Below, piece after piece: positions 58,201 through 64,000 of a DNA stretch of 64,000 nucleotides. Origin of the DNA: a virus. The position numbers and the translations under genes were made by a program. Every line of letters starts with the position of its first letter. Within the stretch, counting starts at the first letter, position 1. The DNA is taken from positions 1-64,000 of IMG/VR virus record IMGVR_UViG_3300033153_002115; one strand, written 5' to 3'. Below the pieces are notes generated by a model. The model was not told the DNA's origin. It searched no databases and saw only the letters and a list, made by a program, of their open reading frames with translations.

Positions 58201-60006
58201 GCAGTAAACTATGCTGCAGGTAAAGATAATAAAAAAGAAATAACAGATCCAGTTACAGGTAAAACTGTAAAAGTACTGGATAAAGGAGTACAAACCTTAG
58301 AGTCTTTAATATCTAAGGAAATGAAAAACATACACGAAGTTAGGGAGTTAAATCCACAACAAATTAGAGAGTTATCTGCCGAAGATAGAGCTGAGATATA
58401 CCGAGAAGCATCGGATATTGTAATGAAGAGTCATAGTGGTGATATATTTAAAGCCCTTAACTCATTAAATCTTGCGGCTCTTTCTTATGGATATAAATCT
58501 GCTATTAAACCTGAAATAGATATGGCTCTCCACTACTTAGAGCAAATGGAAGCAGGTATATCGGATGAAGAGTTCAGTTTTGGTGATATAGATAGTAAAG
58601 ATGTAGGCAATGTTAAAGACATGGTAGACTACTTTATCGACAGAGAATACTTCGATATAGGAAACCAGGATAAGTCGATGAAACTGCCGATTTCTGTCTA
58701 TACATCGGATGAAAAGAGAAGAAGAAAGCAATTGTTAGAACAATTAGAAAGACTAGCTACAGATCAAACTCTAAAAGGTAAAACTACAAAGAAACGTCTT
58801 GAAACAGAATTAAAAGAAATCGGGCGTAATGTAACAGTGAATTCTATCCTTAAGAGTTTAATGGATTTTATGAGAATATCTACAATGGGGTGGAATATAC
58901 AGTCAGCTATTGCTAACTTTATGCAAGGTCAGATAGTAAATATAATACATGCCGCTGAAGGGAAATTGTTTACTTGGGAAACTTTAAAAGCAGCTTATTC
59001 TACAGTATTTACAGAAAAGTTCGATAATATTATAAAGAACTACGCTGTTCTTGGTGATATTATGTATGATTTTGAACGTAAGAACCCATTCGAAAAGAAA
59101 AAAGGGGTTTTCGGTAAAATAAAAAGCGCTGTAATGCCTTACGCTGGTACAAAAATAGCCGAAAAATTGAATCAAGGTAACATAACTGTTGCTATGTTAA
59201 TGCATATGCAAGTACAAGATAAAAATGGTAATGATATAAGCATTTGGGATGCTATAGATGATAAGGGGACTTTATCAAAAGAATACACATTTAATGGACA
59301 GAAAGGAGACGCAGCTATAGCAGAAGTTATTATACCTATAAGAGATCAAATAAACTTAATTCATGGTGACTATAATAACGCTAAATTACTTGGTAAAACT
59401 ATTGTAGGTAAAGCAGCATCGATGTTTCATTTATGGTTTTTTGAACCATATCATGCGCATTTTGGAGCAAGAAAATATAATGCTATTTTAGGTAGAGAAA
59501 CAAGAGGACGTGTATTATCGGCTATGGAATTAATCCCAAAATACGGATTAAGTTATAAAAAAATGCGACAAGCTAGAGCAACCGAGAAAATAACTGAAGT
59601 TGATCTTAATAATATAAAAGTACTTTTTATGGAACTTAGTGCTATAGCTGTTACAGGGTTACTATCTCTATTAGCTAAAGCTACTTTATGTAATGATGAA
59701 GAAACCAAATGTGGTGGTGTAGGGACTACTTATCTAGTTAATACTCTTAATCGTATAGCAAGAGAAGTAAAAACATTTACAGATCCTACTGCATATTATG
59801 ATCTTGTAACGAATCCTGTCGCTGTAGCTAGATACCTTAAAAGTATAGCTAGGATATTCCAGTATATGAGTGATGCGGCAGCAGGAGAGGATATGGATAA
59901 TAAAGATGGGGATAATAAAATACTTATAACTTTAAGTAAAGAATTCCCTATATTAAGAAGATTAATTATTGAACGTGATTTAATGGAAAATATTAGAAAT
60001 TATTAA
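55258..60006 (+). CDS. large virion cargo/polyvalent protein
   Basis: 1582 aa; EFIEKFGDW...NEPKL N-terminal motif; helical C-terminus with hydrophobic segments. Confidence 0.7.
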   Translation: MQCLNINLPSIRKNLDDLTKLTGDKEVAYATLASNNGYTMKQTMTGKVSSLYNELEAISNIPEEAEILKMNVHSSEFIEKFGDWRNLKQGRLNTDNEPKLFTETGKYYYIGEKNKRISIKVNKPASFKKVAPLTSEETNNALKKQYTKDTEGPIKKGSFVSFKSKDGGITDAMVYKVNPNGSFNLFNTTTVTKDHIGILQNKTPRQLTKKGDYHTIGGAKGKPEVLVLYANKDRKEPLILNIKDKISVNKQSSNIQQNYIDAAVQYGLSKEPTIKPTETVETKPLHTDKDKVFVHAENVQEVDEVKAGIDEDISNGVKVFMVLPPQFANQHDMAISAYLTDMDWVYNVNEGVAYFAKPKAKIPTTESQKVPGPTQSFSKRTPGTITDSKGNLHKLGTLAANMIQFLQEKRQDALPYLRQGKQLVSKIERALLKAVPDATLFIYNKIPEVVLANRQLKERIATDSKDPRIRQVTGSDNIDLYNSLMYDLYTETVHRAMQLDRKVPGKGGSFNLRSDHIQAKLRNDIRSLEERKLNLQNTGAANKDIDAVTTEINDINAILEQDVEEYNLKTLKDIAKTDLAKARRILAKENISPDEFVRAKNILQNWIDVGNFEDTDKNIFLDESQAVNPEIQKDFKEIANEAESIKDTSLNNKGRNLITSKISSTLNKVFNFNDITKLKNKVNGWFKTVFSIAKVDNPTVAYIMKTINTAAKKAEVKAITESNHLAELYETLRQKGFDFELFWQKDKDGTVTGNLVSEYTSEYLKRLRNFKRGYGRLSDYKNDNVFIDVSRLAGASTLAIEKYVEELTPIIGRDKAISAVAEADMLFKRYMEIKDHYLMAEFGVENEEELEAGSEEASRMLQWKIQNSPAIRAAAIDKANTGTFNEIQGAAADRFLVTVPKKFDENGKPTELYDDTFTSITEDTDAAAFYKRAYEITKKAKEHFNTSGMTEYALGAIQNTILEEYQEHGIKEFTKKTLWDNAVNYAAGKDNKKEITDPVTGKTVKVLDKGVQTLESLISKEMKNIHEVRELNPQQIRELSAEDRAEIYREASDIVMKSHSGDIFKALNSLNLAALSYGYKSAIKPEIDMALHYLEQMEAGISDEEFSFGDIDSKDVGNVKDMVDYFIDREYFDIGNQDKSMKLPISVYTSDEKRRRKQLLEQLERLATDQTLKGKTTKKRLETELKEIGRNVTVNSILKSLMDFMRISTMGWNIQSAIANFMQGQIVNIIHAAEGKLFTWETLKAAYSTVFTEKFDNIIKNYAVLGDIMYDFERKNPFEKKKGVFGKIKSAVMPYAGTKIAEKLNQGNITVAMLMHMQVQDKNGNDISIWDAIDDKGTLSKEYTFNGQKGDAAIAEVIIPIRDQINLIHGDYNNAKLLGKTIVGKAASMFHLWFFEPYHAHFGARKYNAILGRETRGRVLSAMELIPKYGLSYKKMRQARATEKITEVDLNNIKVLFMELSAIAVTGLLSLLAKATLCNDEETKCGGVGTTYLVNTLNRIAREVKTFTDPTAYYDLVTNPVAVARYLKSIARIFQYMSDAAAGEDMDNKDGDNKILITLSKEFPILRRLIIERDLMENIRNY

Positions 60007-60007
60007 G

Positions 60008-60093
60008 AAGAGAGGATGGGATTCGAACCCACGGAGCTTTTACACCCTCTGATTTAGCAAACCAGTGCAATAGACCAACTCTGCCACCTCTCT
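60008..60093 (-). tRNA. tRNA-Ser(GCT)
   Basis: Cloverleaf; anticodon arm CTGGT-TTGCTAA-ATCAG; long variable arm. Confidence 0.9.
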
Positions 60094-60098
60094 TTATG

Positions 60099-60169
60099 AG
60101 ATGCCGGTCAGGATCGAACTGACGAACGGAGCTTTGCAGGCAACTACCTTACCACTCGGTTACAGCATC
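60099..60169 (-). tRNA. tRNA-Cys(GCA)
   Basis: Loop CTGCAAA, U73; anticodon stem has two mismatches. Confidence 0.8.
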
Positions 60170-60172
60170 ATG

Positions 60173-60244
60173 CACAGGGAGTAGGATTCGAACCTACAAA
60201 CTACGCTTTTGGAGAACGCTTGCCACACCTATAACTGCCCCTGT
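60173..60244 (-). tRNA. tRNA-Trp(CCA), atypical D arm
   Basis: GCGTT-CTCCAAA-AGCGT; T arm GTAGG-TTCGAAT-CCTAC. Confidence 0.8.
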
Positions 60245-60247
60245 ATT

Positions 60248-60329
60248 GTGCCTCACGAAGAATCGAACTTCCTAGTCATTAGACACCAGATTTACAGTCT
60301 GGTCCTGATCCCACTCAGCAGACTCGGCA
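60248..60329 (-). tRNA. tRNA-Tyr(GTA), mismatched acceptor stem
   Basis: CCAGA-CTGTAAA-TCTGG; variable arm present. Confidence 0.75.
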
Positions 60330-60333
60330 TTAG

Positions 60334-60418
60334 AGGAAAGTGTGGGATTCCAACCCACAAGACTTTGACATCCTACTGGTTTTCAAGACCAGGCCCTCGT
60401 GCACCACGGACACTTTCC
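60334..60418 (-). tRNA. tRNA-Ser(TGA), atypical
   Basis: CTGGT-CTTGAAA-ACCAG; long variable arm; T loop TTGGAAT. Confidence 0.8.
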
Positions 60419-60423
60419 TTATG

Positions 60424-60496
60424 TGGAATCAGATAGACTCGAACTACCGTCTCAAGATCTTCAATCTCGTGCTATTGCCTCCTCAGCTATGATTCC
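60424..60496 (-). tRNA. tRNA-Phe(GAA)
   Basis: CGAGA-TTGAAGA-TCTTG. Confidence 0.88.
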
Positions 60497-60501
60497 ATTA
60501 G

Positions 60502-60576
60502 TGCGGAAAGAGAGACTCGAACTCTCAGAACTCTGGAGCCTAAATCCAGCGACTTTACCTATTTGCCCACTCCCGC
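60502..60576 (-). tRNA. tRNA-Leu(TAG), short variable region
   Basis: CTGGA-TTTAGGC-TCCAG. Confidence 0.85.
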
Positions 60577-60582
60577 ATTTTG

Positions 60583-60669
60583 TGCACCTGGTGAGAGTCG
60601 AACTCACAAGACCATCACTGATCACTGGGGCTTAAACCCAGCGCGTTTCTCCAGTTTCGCCACAGACGC
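60583..60669 (-). tRNA. tRNA-Leu(TAA)
   Basis: CTGGG-TTTAAGC-CCCAG; long variable arm. Confidence 0.9.
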
Positions 60670-60673
60670 ATAT

Positions 60674-60709
60674 AAACCAGAAAGACCCTACTCGTTAAAG
60701 TAAGGTCTT
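60674..60709 (-). terminator. attenuator terminator of tRNA array 2
   Basis: AAGACCTTACT-TTAACG-AGTAGGGTCTT followed by TCTGGTTT, just before tRNA-Leu(TAA). Confidence 0.8.
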
Positions 60710-60740
60710 AGTACTATATTGTATTATTTATATAGCTATC

Positions 60741-60800
60741 CTAATCCCTTACCGAAGTAAGCAGCGACCAGAAACTAAATAAATAACATGTTGTTTTCAT
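60741..60800 (-). CDS. leader peptide 2, MKTTCYLFSFWSLLTSVRD
   Basis: ATG AAA ACA ACA TGT TAT TTA TTT AGT TTC TGG TCG CTG CTT ACT TCG GTA AGG GAT TAG; codons match the 8 downstream tRNAs. Confidence 0.85.
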   Translation of the reverse strand: MKTTCYLFSFWSLLTSVRD

Positions 60801-60813
60801 AAAATGTTATATT

Positions 60814-60839
60814 AAAACCGGTTAAATTAATAACCGGCC
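60814..60839 (-). terminator. intrinsic terminator-like hairpin upstream of leader 2
   Basis: GGCCGGTTA-TTAATT-TAACCGGTT followed by TT. Confidence 0.55.
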
Positions 60840-60910
60840 TTTACAATTTAAAGTGTCAATCAGGTTTTGCACCCCTGTTTTACATGACAAACTCGTTGTT
60901 TTTGCGGTAA

Positions 60911-60942
60911 CAAATATACACCTTATATATTATACAACCAAA
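60911..60942 (-). promoter_or_regulatory. Bacteroidota sigma-A promoter (TTTG-N20-TATATTTG)
   Basis: Both -33 and -7 boxes at consensus spacing, between the two arrays. Confidence 0.7.
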
Positions 60943-60948
60943 TAAAAG

Positions 60949-61021
60949 TTACCCCGGCTGGATTCGAACCAGAATTACAAGGCTCAAAACCTTGTGTGCT
61001 TGCCGTTTACACTACAGGGCA
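60949..61021 (-). tRNA. tRNA-Gln(TTG)
   Basis: CAAGG-TTTTGAG-CCTTG. Confidence 0.88.
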
Positions 61022-61026
61022 ATATG

Positions 61027-61099
61027 AGAAGGTGAAAGGAATCGAACCTTCAACCTCCGAATTCGTAGTCCGGGGCTCATCCATTTGAGCTACACCTCC
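61027..61099 (-). tRNA. tRNA-Arg(ACG)
   Basis: CCGGA-CTACGAA-TTCGG. Confidence 0.9.
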
Positions 61100-61104
61100 A
61101 TTAG

Positions 61105-61177
61105 TGATGCCTCTGGGTTTCGAACCCAGGCTCTTCGCATTAAAAGTGCGAGGCTTTACCAACTAAGCTAAGACACC
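61105..61177 (-). tRNA. tRNA-Lys(TTT)
   Basis: TCGCA-CTTTTAA-TGCGA. Confidence 0.9.
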
Positions 61178-61294
61178 TGATAAATAGAATATCTATACTC
61201 CTTTATCGGTGCGGCCAGTTCTCCGTACATCTCTACGACCTCCAAGCCTCTTGAATTAACACTATACATAACATTTAATTTTAATTAATACTAG

Positions 61295-61369
61295 TACTGC
61301 CAACGAGGCTCGAACTCGCATCTTCCAGGATGAAAACCTGACGTCCTACTCCATTTAGACTACAGCAGC
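61295..61369 (-). tRNA. tRNA-Glu(TTC)
   Basis: TCAGG-TTTTCAT-CCTGG. Confidence 0.88.
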
Positions 61370-61380
61370 ATATAATTTAG

Positions 61381-61452
61381 AACCCCTACCGAGAGTCGAA
61401 CTCAGGACTTGGGTTTAGAAGACCCACGCTTTTCCAGTTAAGCTATAAGGGT
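61381..61452 (-). tRNA. tRNA-Arg(TCT)
   Basis: TGGGT-CTTCTAA-ACCCA. Confidence 0.9.
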
Positions 61453-61457
61453 ACCTG

Positions 61458-61531
61458 TAGGGATGGCAGGAATTGAACCGACGCTCTCCCGGATATCAGC
61501 CGGGCACTTTAACCAACTAAGCTACACCCCC
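61458..61531 (-). tRNA. tRNA-Ile(GAT)
   Basis: CCCGG-CTGATAT-CCGGG. Confidence 0.85.
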
Positions 61532-61536
61532 ATATG

Positions 61537-61612
61537 TTGACCTGGGCGGATTCGAACCGACGACTTCTTCCTTGTAAGGGAAGCACTCTGAACCAGACTG
61601 AGTTACAGATCA
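61537..61612 (-). tRNA. tRNA-Val(TAC)
   Basis: CTTCC-CTTACAA-GGAAG. Confidence 0.9.
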
Positions 61613-61617
61613 ATTTG

Positions 61618-61691
61618 CGGACTGGTAAAGATTCGAACTTTACATACTTTCTGATATTCATCAGATTTTCTTTCCCGTTAATTTACAGCCC
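61618..61691 (-). ncRNA. tRNA-like RNA without a readable anticodon (pseudo-tRNA)
   Basis: Acceptor GGGCTG/CAGTCC and T arm intact; anticodon arm TCTGA-TGAATA-TCAGA has a 6-nt loop. Confidence 0.6.
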
Positions 61692-61698
61692 AATATAG

Positions 61699-61774
61699 CG
61701 GTCCCGGAGGGTATCGAACCCTCGTTTTTCTAGCGTGACAGGCTAGATCCCCGGCCATTGGGGCTCACGAAACC
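61699..61774 (-). tRNA. tRNA-Asp(GTC)
   Basis: CTAGC-CTGTCAC-GCTAG; G73. Confidence 0.88.
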
Positions 61775-61778
61775 ATTG

Positions 61779-61852
61779 TGGGCAATGCTGGATTTGAACC
61801 AACGACCTTCTCCTTATGAGGGAGCTGCTCTACCTGACTAAGCTAAAAGCCC
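61779..61852 (-). tRNA. tRNA(CAT), probably Ile2 (lysidine, reads ATA)
   Basis: CTCC-CTCATAA-GGAG; body resembles bacterial tRNA-Ile2 (GGTCG.TGGTTCAA.TCCAGC). Confidence 0.75.
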
Positions 61853-61857
61853 AAAAG

Positions 61858-61932
61858 TTGCGGGAGTGAGAATCGAACTCACGTTAATCTTGCTTATGAG
61901 ACAAGGCTGGAACCCCTCCAGACCACCCCGCA
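61858..61932 (-). tRNA. tRNA-Met(CAT)
   Basis: CTTGT-CTCATAA-GCAAG; lacks the three G-C anticodon-stem pairs of initiators. Confidence 0.8.
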
Positions 61933-61939
61933 ATATAAG

Positions 61940-62033
61940 ATCAGGTGTCGCACCTAAAGACTTACTTAAATCCAGCTCGGAACTGCAATCTATTTATCTT
62001 AGCGATACAAGGGAATCGAACCCTTCACCTAAT
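61940..62033 (-). ncRNA. permuted tRNA-like structured RNA
   Basis: Terminal stem ATTAGGTG/CACCTGAT enclosing a 5'-located T arm AAGGG-TTCGATT-CCCTT. Confidence 0.55.
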
Positions 62034-62034
62034 G

Positions 62035-62107
62035 AGCCTCCGACAGGAATCGAACCTGTTATCCTCTGATTACAAATCAGTAGCTTCGCCAGCAAAGCTT
62101 AAGAGGC
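62035..62107 (-). tRNA. tRNA-Thr(TGT)
   Basis: CTGA-TTTGTAA-TCAG. Confidence 0.88.
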
Positions 62108-62156
62108 ATAATTGGTCGGTGTTTTTATACAGGTACCAACCAAGAGCCTGTCTTCG

Positions 62157-62230
62157 AGCGAGTAGACGGGATCAAACCGACTCTAATCCTGGTTGGAAGC
62201 CAGGTGCACCATCATTTATGCGTTACTCGC
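62157..62230 (-). tRNA. tRNA-Gly(TCC)
   Basis: CCTGG-CTTCCAA-CCAGG; U73. Confidence 0.85.
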
Positions 62231-62235
62231 TTATG

Positions 62236-62307
62236 CGGAATGAGATGGATTCGAACCAACGTACATCTGCTTAACAGGCAGGCGCTAAGCCGCTTAGCTA
62301 TCATTCC
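62236..62307 (-). tRNA. tRNA-Asn(GTT)
   Basis: CTGC-CTGTTAA-GCAG; G73. Confidence 0.88.
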
Positions 62308-62311
62308 TTAG

Positions 62312-62383
62312 TGGAGCCGAAGTGAATCGAACACTCGTAACTCTGCTTGCAAGGCAAAGCTTCTAACCAACAAGACCAACCCC
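62312..62383 (-). tRNA. tRNA-Ala(TGC)
   Basis: TTTGC-CTTGCAA-GCAGA; G3.U70 identity pair present. Confidence 0.88.
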
Positions 62384-62385
62384 AT

Positions 62386-62461
62386 TGGGTGTATGATGAG
62401 ACTCGAACTCACTTCAACTGGAACCACAATCCAGCCCCTCGGCCACTTCGGGATCATACAC
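62386..62461 (-). tRNA. tRNA-His(GTG)
   Basis: CTGGA-TTGTGGT-TCCAG; G-1:C73; encoded CCA. Confidence 0.9.
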
Positions 62462-62463
62462 AG

Positions 62464-62537
62464 TAGGGTGAGTCAGATTCGAACTGACGGACCGGTGATT
62501 CCAAATCACCGTAGTATAGCCTCTGCAATACCACCCT
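62464..62537 (-). tRNA. tRNA-Pro(TGG)
   Basis: GGTGA-TTTGGAA-TCACC. Confidence 0.88.
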
Positions 62538-62541
62538 ATAT

Positions 62542-62579
62542 AAAACAAAAAAGACCTTCCTGTTTAGTCGGAAAGTCTT
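62542..62579 (-). terminator. attenuator terminator of tRNA array 1
   Basis: AAGACTTTCC-GACTAAACA-GGAAGGTCTT followed by TTTTGTTTT, ending 4 nt before tRNA-Pro. Confidence 0.85.
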
Positions 62580-62609
62580 ACTTGTGTTATTTTATATTAT
62601 ACGATAATA

Positions 62610-62687
62610 TCACATAGCAAGAGCCCTCCCACGAATTGTATCCGCCTTCGGCTGCTCGACTGTATGTATATTATTCATTGTTCTCAT
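62610..62687 (-). CDS. leader peptide 1, MRTMNNIHTVEQPKADTIRGRALAM
   Basis: ATG AGA ACA ATG AAT AAT ATA CAT ACA GTC GAG CAG CCG AAG GCG GAT ACA ATT CGT GGG AGG GCT CTT GCT ATG TGA; codons match the 16 downstream tRNAs. Confidence 0.87.
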   Translation of the reverse strand: MRTMNNIHTVEQPKADTIRGRALAM

Positions 62688-62691
62688 GTTG

Positions 62692-62699
62692 CAAATATA
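62692..62699 (-). promoter_or_regulatory. Bacteroidota -7 box (TATATTTG) 4 nt upstream of the leader 1 ATG
   Basis: TATATTTG-CAAC-ATG. Confidence 0.7.
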
Positions 62700-62785
62700 T
62701 ATAAAAGATTCGATTTTAAAGTCCTTTAGAATGAATTATTTTAAAATTTCTTACCTATGATACTGTTAGATTGATTCTCAAAGGG

Positions 62786-64000
62786 TTAGATATGCCCACC
62801 TGTAGACCATTTAGTATATAATGCCTGACTTGATGCTAATGAGAAATTTCCTGGTAAAGTAGTCGGCTGAATACTTAACCATAACTCATCTCCAAAATCA
62901 CCATCTCTTCTTGCTATCATTTCTGACACATCTAATAACGCTTGGAAAGTAATCTTTTCATCTAACACGGCAGCTTTACTTATAACTATACTATTTGAAT
63001 TGGTTATAGGAGCACCAGGTTCTGAATAAGTAATAGGATCACCATCTTTTAACCATCCCCAACGTACAGTCCATTCATAAGTTCCTGTAGAATTTGCATG
63101 CCCACTCCACATTAATTTAATAGGACTTGAAGTATCAAGATCAAAAGGCAGAAATCCACTAACACCTAATATATCACCTGTAGCTGTAAATTTGTTATTT
63201 GTTAATCCTGCTCCTATATCTTCACTTATATATAAAGTCTGACTCTGCATACTACCTTCAAAAGGTTTACCAGAAGCTAAGTTCAAACCTAATTGTGCTT
63301 CAGGTCTAGCTGTACCAAAGAACTCTATCCAACCATCACCATTTACCTCAAGTCTGTTTGAATGCACTTTCCATTGTTCGAATACAGGAGCTGTAGTAAT
63401 AGTTGCTGTAATTCTATATCGTATCCAATAATAATCTACACCTAATACAGGTGTTATAGGATCATTCTTGGCCCACCCATCATTTTGTAGTACACTATCA
63501 TATCTAATTTGAGTAGAGCCTACAGCCTGGAAAATGTTTTTAGCTTTTGGGTAATACTTTCCACCAGAATCTGCTTCCATTACATTAAGTTCAACCCAAA
63601 CACTTCCATTCCAGTATTCTGTAACAATATTTCCTGTACCAAAAACTGCAGCTAAAGTAACTTTTGTTTTAATACCATAATGATGTAGAACATCTACAGT
63701 ATCAGCACGCATACTTGCTATATATATAGCAGAATCGGCGTCTAAATTAGGGAACGTAAAAGTAGATCCACTAGCAGATTTAGCCGCAGCAGAAACATCC
63801 ACAAAAGAAGCACCATCATAAGTATACACTACCATACCGGCAGTATAACTATCTCCTTCACCAAACACACTTTCTGCTGGTATCCCTGGACTTCCTACGT
63901 GTAACTCGCCAAGAATATTTAACCCTTCATCATCTTCACTTACATCCAGTATATAAACATAAAAACCAGCTCCAGGTATGACGTAGCTGTTATTGATCTC
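62786..64000 (-). CDS. 5'-truncated beta-rich protein (fibre/structural-like)
   Basis: The frame of ORF 62786..63868 stays open to the window end; EYWNGSVWVEL and YYWIRYRI motifs. Confidence 0.6.
   Translation of the reverse strand, partial: EINNSYVIPGAGFYVYILDVSEDDEGLNILGELHVGSPGIPAESVFGEGDSYTAGMVVYTYDGASFVDVSAAAKSASGSTFTFPNLDADSAIYIASMRADTVDVLHHYGIKTKVTLAAVFGTGNIVTEYWNGSVWVELNVMEADSGGKYYPKAKNIFQAVGSTQIRYDSVLQNDGWAKNDPITPVLGVDYYWIRYRITATITTAPVFEQWKVHSNRLEVNGDGWIEFFGTARPEAQLGLNLASGKPFEGSMQSQTLYISEDIGAGLTNNKFTATGDILGVSGFLPFDLDTSSPIKLMWSGHANSTGTYEWTVRWGWLKDGDPITYSEPGAPITNSNSIVISKAAVLDEKITFQALLDVSEMIARRDGDFGDELWLSIQPTTLPGNFSLASSQALYTKWSTGGHI

Follow-up and report, generated by a model that had tools for sequence, protein, structure and literature searches.

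The tRNA region of IMG/VR virus record IMGVR_UViG_3300033153_002115 raises the question of how a phage controls the synthesis of its own tRNAs. The stretch analysed here (the window; positions 1 to 64,000 of that record) is the first 64 kb of a complete virus record of 98,468 bp with direct terminal repeats and 34.7% G+C. It carries 24 tRNA genes on the minus strand (62537-60007), which are divided into two arrays, and each array is preceded by a tiny open reading frame (ORF) and a predicted terminator. The usual view of phage tRNA genes is that they are expressed constitutively to assist with codon usage or that they form a fixed answer to defences that cleave tRNAs. An earlier reading of this DNA from its letters (the sequence-only reading) had proposed that the two arrays are controlled by transcription attenuation. 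Our analyses support this interpretation, as all the sequence-level features of an attenuator are present beyond chance. On the basis of the sequence and of RNA folding, we consider it likely that transcription into each tRNA array is controlled by a ribosome-mediated attenuator of the leader-peptide type, which would act as negative feedback on tRNA supply.

ARAGORN called 22 tRNAs on the minus strand between 60007 and 62537. Rfam added a tRNA-Gly(TCC) gene at 62157-62230 (41.5 bits). Further, a tRNA-Tyr(GTA) candidate at 60250-60328 possesses a clean GTA anticodon arm and T arm and a weak acceptor stem, and its score of 24 bits is below the threshold. Array 1 (60948-62537, minus strand) comprises 16 tRNAs for 14 amino acids, in the order Pro, His, Ala, Asn, Gly, Thr, Met(CAT), Met/Ile(CAT), Asp, Val, Ile, Arg(TCT), Glu, Lys, Arg(ACG) and Gln, and also contains the fragment of a T arm and a tRNA-like pseudogene. 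We assumed that one CAT tRNA is the lysidine-containing Ile2 tRNA. Array 2 (60007-60669, minus strand) comprises Leu(TAA), Leu(TAG), Phe, Ser(TGA), the Tyr-like candidate, Trp, Cys and Ser(GCT). The amino-acid sets of the two arrays are disjoint and jointly include all 20 amino acids. The earlier count of 24 tRNAs for all 20 amino acids in two non-overlapping arrays was thus recovered, with the Gly gene supplied by Rfam and the Tyr gene by the sub-threshold candidate. Array 2 comprises the full set of tRNAs for UNN codons (Phe, Leu-UUR, Ser-UCN, Tyr, Cys and Trp) and, beyond these, only the isoacceptors for Leu-CUN and Ser-AGY; this grouping may reflect a common A37 modification or long variable arms.

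The short ORF upstream of each array is matched to that array in its codons. Leader ORF 1 (62610-62687, minus strand) consists of 25 codons and a TGA stop and encodes MRTMNNIHTVEQPKADTIRGRALAM, and leader ORF 2 (60741-60800, minus strand) consists of 19 codons and a TAG stop and encodes MKTTCYLFSFWSLLTSVRD. Codons were sorted into decoding classes, with those of Leu, Ser, Arg and Ile divided further by codon box. Every one of the 16 classes of array 1, isoacceptor boxes included, is represented in leader 1, whose single foreign codon is CTT. Leader 2 likewise has a codon for each of the 8 classes of array 2, again with the isoacceptor boxes, inside codons 5-14 (C Y L F S F W S L L), and this ten-codon run (TGT TAT TTA TTT AGT TTC TGG TCG CTG CTT) includes no foreign codon. 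The counts of 16/16 and 8/8 agree with the sequence-only reading, in which each ORF held at least one codon for every tRNA of its own array.

When ATG ORFs were collected mechanically over the whole genome, one of the 405 ORFs of up to 25 codons contained the 14 amino acids of array 1, and this was leader 1; likewise, leader 2 was the one ORF among 845 of up to 19 codons with the 6 amino acids of array 2. Among six-frame, stop-free stretches of 25 codons, all 16 array-1 classes were present in 6 overlapping stretches out of 55,751, all on leader 1, and all 8 array-2 classes were present in 2 of 103,873 stretches of 10 codons, both on leader 2. The simulated probability was approximately 1e-4 for leader 1. 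For leader 2 it was 6e-5 if gene codon usage was the model and 2e-3 if base composition was, and for the ten-codon run it was below 1e-5. Fisher's test of class in the leader versus tRNA in the array, over the two units of the window, gave p = 6e-8 (2 x 2 table: 23, 0; 6, 17). Because of these genome-unique stretches, simulated probabilities and the Fisher p value, the codon match between leader and array is real and exceeds chance. Many of the sensor codons (GAG, CAG, CCG, AAG, GCG, GTC, TCG and CTG) are read by wobble and are in the minority in this AT-rich phage; as a fraction of the codon family in this phage, GTC accounts for 0.05, CCG for 0.12, GCG for 0.07, TCG for 0.05 and CTG for 0.05. 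These minority codons may raise the sensitivity of the sensor or serve RNA pairing.

A promoter-like -7 box (TATATTTG) of the Bacteroidota type TAnnTTTG was found at 62692-62699 (minus strand), 4 nt before the ATG of leader 1 (TATATTTG-caac-ATG). The spacing of box, 4 nt and ATG suggests a leaderless or near-leaderless mRNA from a predicted transcription start. The box of unit 2, also TATATTTG, is located at 60911-60918 (minus strand), with TTTG 20 nt upstream. The earlier reading had placed a promoter box before each array; both boxes are present, but that of array 2 lies approximately 110 nt upstream of the leader-2 ATG and is not adjacent to it. The 108-nt segment in between (60802-60909, minus strand) contains a hairpin CCGGUU...AACCGG (AAGGCCGGUUA...UAACCGGUUUU) with a U-run and a minimal ATG-TAA, and could have arisen as a small insertion or could serve to terminate array 1. 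In a close relative from a marine-sediment metagenome (run X1), the 108 nt from 60909 to 60802 are missing (joint 60801 to 60910), which yields TATATTTG-tgat-ATG at leader 2, with the spacing also seen at leader 1. Thus, either the window carries an insertion at this site or the relative carries a deletion.

The window derives from an uncultured phage that, judged from its proteins, is crAss-like (Crassvirales), because its major capsid protein is approximately 40% identical across 97-100% of its length to those of Cellulophaga phi14:2, Bacteroides DAC15/DAC17, cr111_1 and IAS virus, and because its terminase (terL), portal and major head protein match PHROG families. When the tRNA region was compared by blastn, it matched the tRNA arrays of Cellulophaga phages phi17:2 and phi4:1 (Lightbulbvirus, 145 kb) and of Maribacter phage Panino, whose structural genes are not crAss-like. 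The tRNAs of these Flavobacteriia phages (phi17:2/phi4:1 and Panino) fall into three units, namely {P,E,Q,H,L,L,R}, {A,K,I,G,M,D,T,V,R(TCT),M} and {Y,S,S,N,W,F,C-like}. In front of every unit of phi17:2 and Panino, a short ORF is combined with a TAnnTTTG box and with a hairpin whose T-run adjoins the first tRNA, and the layout of box, 4 nt and ATG recurs in phi17:2 leader 1 and in Panino leaders A and C. The leader ORF of unit 1 reads MKIQRLHLQELEQP... in phi17:2 and MKTQRLHQELEQP... in Panino, with the run QRLH(L)QELEQP. That of unit 2 contains TKTGITVIDKTKGAR in phi17:2 and begins MRAATGIAIIGRTKDK in Panino, with a run rich in T/K/G/I/V/D/A/R, and that of unit 3 begins MKTNYCTYNNSNWSFSY and MKTKGNTFSWFNYSNCSDCNC, respectively, with the runs NYC..NNSNWSFSY or NTFSWFNYSNCSDCNC.

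All eight leaders, those of the window included, cover 100% of the classes of their own array and far fewer of those of the other arrays. The pooled Fisher p value was approximately 3e-20, which overstates independence because phi17:2 and Panino are homologous; the phi4:1 leaders are identical to those of phi17:2 and therefore do not constitute an independent case. The match extends to isoacceptor boxes, with CGT or CGC before Arg-ACG and AGA before Arg-TCT. Further, Leu and Asn are placed in other units than in the window, and the contents of the leaders move accordingly. Covariation of leader codons with array content, which the sequence-only reading had put forward as a check, was thus detected in phages whose tRNAs are differently partitioned. 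The third unit of phi17:2/Panino resembles array 2, with Asn replacing Leu. A common ATGAAAACA start and similar terminators suggest that the cassettes of the window, phi17:2/phi4:1 and Panino are homologous. In the tails of leader 1 of phi17:2 and leader A of Panino, the nucleotides AUAUCGGGAGG are kept in different reading frames, so that selection at this position would be on RNA pairing and not on the peptide.

Both leaders of the window are followed by a predicted terminator (a G+C-containing stem and a T-run) that ends 1 to 3 nt before the first tRNA of the array, close to the distance of about 4 nt given earlier. Terminator 1 (62540-62579, minus strand), directly before tRNA-Pro, has a 10-bp stem (AAGACUUUCC / GGAAGGUCUU) and a 9-nt loop followed by UUUUUUGUUUU (a U6GU4 tail). 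Terminator 2 (60671-60709, minus strand), directly before tRNA-Leu(TAA), has an 11-12-bp stem, a 4-6-nt loop and the T-tract UCUGGUUUAUAU. The leader ORFs finish 30-32 nt before the terminator stems, and the 3' end of each ORF is complementary to the 5' arm of its terminator, as had been noticed from the letters. In predicted antiterminator 1 (62567-62632, minus strand), the ORF 3' end GUGGGAGGGCUCUUG pairs with the region CAAGUAAGACUUUCC of the terminator 5' arm (dG approximately -22.6 kcal/mol). In predicted antiterminator 2 (60699-60753, minus strand), GGUAAGG..AUUAG of the ORF 3' end pairs with CUAAG..CCUUACU of the terminator 5' arm (dG approximately -16.3). These folds were computed on RNA cut before the terminator 3' arm and were compared with 1000 dinucleotide shuffles; the z values were -3.4 for leader 1 and -3.1 for leader 2, and 0/1000 shuffles were equal in energy and arm pairing. 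When ORF tails were paired with their own or the other terminator arm, the energies were -16.3 and -8.3 for leader 1 and -14.6 and -8.0 for leader 2, and the preference for the own arm was significant over the eight leaders (permutation P = 0.006).

These results bear on whether the short ORFs encode functional micropeptides or occur by chance, the hairpins then being processing signals or ordinary terminators without connection to the ORFs. The ORFs are unannotatable and very short, and the promoter motif with ATG, considered within this genome alone, is not above chance, as this explanation would have it. Against it, the leaders are unique in the genome with a joint probability below 1e-7, leader and array covary in two other phage lineages, the tail nucleotides are conserved across differing frames, and the pairing of ORF tail and terminator is unit-specific. 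We therefore regard this explanation as very improbable, and a peptide function or chance origin of the leader ORFs was rejected as effectively excluded. The proposal that the hairpins merely terminate transcription of the upstream gene was also rejected, because a promoter box and an ORF intervene between that gene and the hairpin.

When the full-length leaders were folded without a ribosome, the minimum-energy structure consisted of a long 1:2 hairpin in the ORF region and the 3:4 terminator. A 30-nt ribosome footprint was then placed at each codon successively. Antiterminator 1 remained whole with the A-site at codons 1-15 and was broken from approximately codon 16, and antiterminator 2 remained whole with the A-site at codons 2-12 and was lost further on. 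Because the antiterminator is masked exactly once the ribosome leaves the sensor codons, the geometry of the modelled switch is that of the classical logic, in which a stall at the sensor would give read-through and smooth translation would give termination.

According to the attenuation model, transcription would begin at the Bacteroidota-type promoter just 5' of the tiny ORF, the first 12-16 codons of which are codons read by the downstream tRNAs. If these codons were decoded fast, the ribosome would reach the 3' end of the ORF and mask the antiterminator strand, the terminator hairpin would form, and termination would fall a few nucleotides before the first tRNA. If a charged tRNA were scarce, a sensed codon would be decoded slowly and the ribosome would stall upstream; the ORF 3' end would then pair with the 5' arm of the terminator, RNA polymerase would enter the array, and RNase P would free the tRNAs from the read-through transcript. 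The phage tRNA output would thereby be matched to decoding capacity, independently for each of the two tRNA sets. We infer the translation of the ORFs, termination at the hairpins, the sign of the response and its biological trigger from these features. In nature, the response might be triggered by phage codon usage that does not fit the host tRNA pool, by the decay of host tRNAs that follows host shut-off, or by a tRNA-cleaving defence.

The sign of the response could also be the opposite, with translation of the leader needed for read-through because the ribosome unwinds structure or blocks Rho, or the leader could control the processing or stability of the precursor. The codon match by itself does not fix the sign, and the T-tract of terminator 2 is weak. 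Further, to our knowledge, the tightness of transcription-translation coupling in Bacteroidota has not been established. However, the antiterminator strand lies in the ORF 3' end and immediately downstream, where it would be masked once the ribosome has passed the sensor codons, and an inverse sign would lower tRNA synthesis when tRNAs are scarce. We consider these other logics improbable.

Several observations weigh against the attenuation model, the weak T-tract of terminator 2 among them. The Val codon of leader 1 is GTC, which is not readable by anticodon TAC under standard wobble, and the match of the ATA codon in leader 1 depends on the assumption that one CAT tRNA is the lysidine Ile tRNA. 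In the window, the promoter box of unit 2 is parted from its ORF by the 108-nt insert, with its terminator-like hairpin. A ribosome stalled at codons 16-25 of leader 1 (D T I R G R A L A M) would break the antiterminator. Since a stall from approximately codon 16 onward destroys antiterminator 1, Ile-ATT, Arg-CGT and Gly-GGG of leader 1 may escape sensing, and by this rough masking model about 13 of the 16 leader-1 classes would be truly sensed. The earlier statement that stalling on any surveyed codon induces the array was accordingly too strong. Antiterminator 1 is also predicted to form without a ribosome before arm 4 is made, so that the untranslated default of leader 1 is ambiguous. The sensor would be unable to tell a tRNA shortage from amino-acid starvation. 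Finally, no codon-matched leader was evident before the tRNA arrays of the gut crAss-like phages DAC17 and cr111_1 or of the unrelated phage L125; the design is therefore optional and not universal. In DAC17 (L131, 700-806) and cr111_1 (L132, 590-712), a TAccTTTG box and a structured leader precede the first tRNA, the leader consisting of GGGGGATACAG...CTGTATCCCC or of a 13-codon ORF and a hairpin without a T-run.

The same attenuator may have been selected for counter-defence: by detecting host anticodon nucleases, or other immunity that depletes tRNAs, it would switch on the phage's own version of the tRNA set under attack and so rescue translation. Phage tRNAs can compensate for defences aimed at tRNAs, and the sensor spans nearly all tRNAs carried by this phage, so that the loss of any single species could be detected. 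However, nothing in the window ties the system to defence, and no match to the tRNA-repair gene RtcB was found in the genome. Plain supply-demand feedback, arising from a mismatch of tRNA pool and codon usage or from host shut-off, accounts for all the data equally well, and the minority wobble-read sensor codons fit sensitivity tuning as well as defence. We therefore hold a selected role in counter-defence to be rather unlikely.

Returning to attenuation as feedback on tRNA supply, we favour, with somewhat less assurance than for the gating of the two arrays itself, a broader proposal: that Bacteroidota phages carry modular tRNA-supply homeostats. Each cassette would consist of a promoter, a probably leaderless checklist ORF, an attenuator and a tRNA set, and the codon list of the ORF would co-evolve with the tRNAs. 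The cassettes would be common to unrelated lineages, crAss-like and Lightbulbvirus-type, and one attenuator would audit up to approximately 16 classes. This would be the first leader-peptide attenuation of tRNA genes and also the first attenuator to audit so many classes, and the cassettes could double as sensors of tRNA-targeting immunity.

The closest DNA relatives of the window were found in marine-sediment metagenomes, and we infer a Bacteroidota host. In sediment metagenomes (n = 3), contigs 85-94% identical to the window cover both leaders, and the reported indels lie outside the ORFs; leader ORF 1 has no internal indel in relatives at 89-94% identity. Degenerate back-translated patterns of leader 1, leader 2 and the QRLHQELEQP leader had no match in viral contigs, nor had that of leader 2 in metagenome contigs, and the pattern of TAnnTTTG, 4 nt and ATGAAAACA matched ordinary genes only. 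A search with a gene flanking the phi17:2 arrays retrieved only phi4:1 itself.

Some further features were observed in the arrays of the cultured phages. In Panino (L006 6591-6799), Rfam detected a permuted tmRNA (RF04321, 62 bits, above the threshold) within the tRNA array, and in unit B of this phage a 49-aa membrane-like ORF lies between the promoter box and the codon-matched leader. The phi4:1 gene annotated as 'tRNA-Pseudo' (L003 3898-3986) was called as Asn-GTT when the ARAGORN threshold was relaxed; its variable arm is unusually long, and the leader upstream of this candidate retains four Asn codons.

Array 1 of the window also contains structures other than tRNA genes. A tRNA-like pseudogene with an aberrant anticodon loop lies between Asp and Val (approximately 61691-61617, minus strand). 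An isolated T-arm fragment near 62033-61990 (minus strand) is followed by a 7-bp hairpin at 61957-61941 (within 61933-62033), the flank of which (AAGTAAGTCTTT...TTATAT) is similar to the leader-1 terminator region. The fragment and this hairpin may be what is left of an internal attenuator after units fused. Neither YrlA nor any other Rfam match was found at the sites of the pseudogene and the T-arm fragment. Between tRNA-Gly and tRNA-Thr (62110-62156, minus strand), a 9-bp hairpin TTGGTTGGT...ACCGACCAA is present.

On the minus strand, the tRNA region as a whole is flanked on one side by the end of the structural module, which is encoded on the plus strand, and on the other by a minus-strand gene with its end at 62786. 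The last ORF of the structural module, of 1582 aa, ends at 60006, and no relative of its product was found in IMG/VR. The 404-aa protein upstream of the tRNA region had one relative in IMG/VR (L002), where no tRNAs adjoin the gene, and tblastn against phages yielded none.

If the proposed attenuation is true, the phage gauges the decoding capacity of its host in real time and separately for each set, making tRNAs only when they are needed. The attenuation paradigm would be extended in two respects, in that the tRNA product would feed back directly on its own sensor and that a single leader peptide would be a checklist of many codons. The model would also account for the many tiny 'hypothetical proteins' annotated inside phage tRNA arrays, and it would provide synthetic biology with a compact sensor of codon-specific translation speed. 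The same design is present in the cultured systems Cellulophaga phi17:2/phi4:1 and Maribacter Panino and is thus directly testable.

The nearest known systems are the leader-peptide attenuators of enterobacteria, namely trpL, hisL, leuL, pheL, the multivalent thrL and the ilvGMEDA leader. The phage leaders resemble these in a short ORF with regulatory codons, in the alternative 1:2, 2:3 and 3:4 hairpins, in an intrinsic terminator before the genes, and in the predicted choice of the antiterminator by a stalled ribosome. In contrast, the enterobacterial attenuators regulate biosynthetic enzymes, whereas the phage leaders precede tRNA genes only; the usual scope of classical attenuators, with genes for amino-acid biosynthesis or aminoacyl-tRNA synthetases downstream, thus does not include the two arrays. 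The enterobacterial sensors are runs of one to three amino acids, whereas the phage sensors list 8 to 16 decoding classes once or twice each. Further, in the phage the output (tRNA) would be the molecule whose supply is sensed, and the setting differs in the phage genome, the Bacteroidota-type promoter and the probably leaderless ORF.

The pheST leader (pheM) attenuates phenylalanyl-tRNA synthetase in response to the level of charged tRNA. It is similar to the phage leaders in that leader-peptide attenuation acts on a gene of the translation apparatus, but it concerns one amino acid, a protein gene and a cellular genome. T-box riboswitches also report tRNA status by transcription antitermination and have translation-related targets; unlike the phage leaders, they need neither ribosome nor ORF, since uncharged tRNA binds to them directly. 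No T-box or other Rfam cis-regulator was found in 59900-62900 at E <= 1, where the matches were of the tRNA clan or due to chance.

Among published accounts, the trn operon of Anabaena sp. PCC 7120 comes nearest; its 26-gene tRNA L-array is silent and is induced under translational stress, and this operon is controlled by the repressor TrcR (RHH) at direct repeats of the promoter (PMC8421152, PMC10272220). The 2021 paper on the operon does not mention a leader, an attenuator or a terminator. The Anabaena operon and the phage arrays are alike in that an accessory tRNA array is, or would be, kept silent and turned on when translation is impaired. However, the Anabaena operon is cellular and is controlled by a repressor at its promoter, whereas the phage arrays have a different type of promoter, a leader ORF and a terminator. 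The Anabaena type is marked by direct repeats of 9 nt, arranged in tandem across its -10 box and transcription start, to which the RHH repressor binds.

In a full-text literature search, we found no paper in which leader peptides or attenuators are connected with tRNA genes of phages or with tRNA arrays. Thus, the proposed mechanism is of a known kind, leader-peptide attenuation, and its tRNA-gene target, its checklist-like sensor and its phage setting are new.

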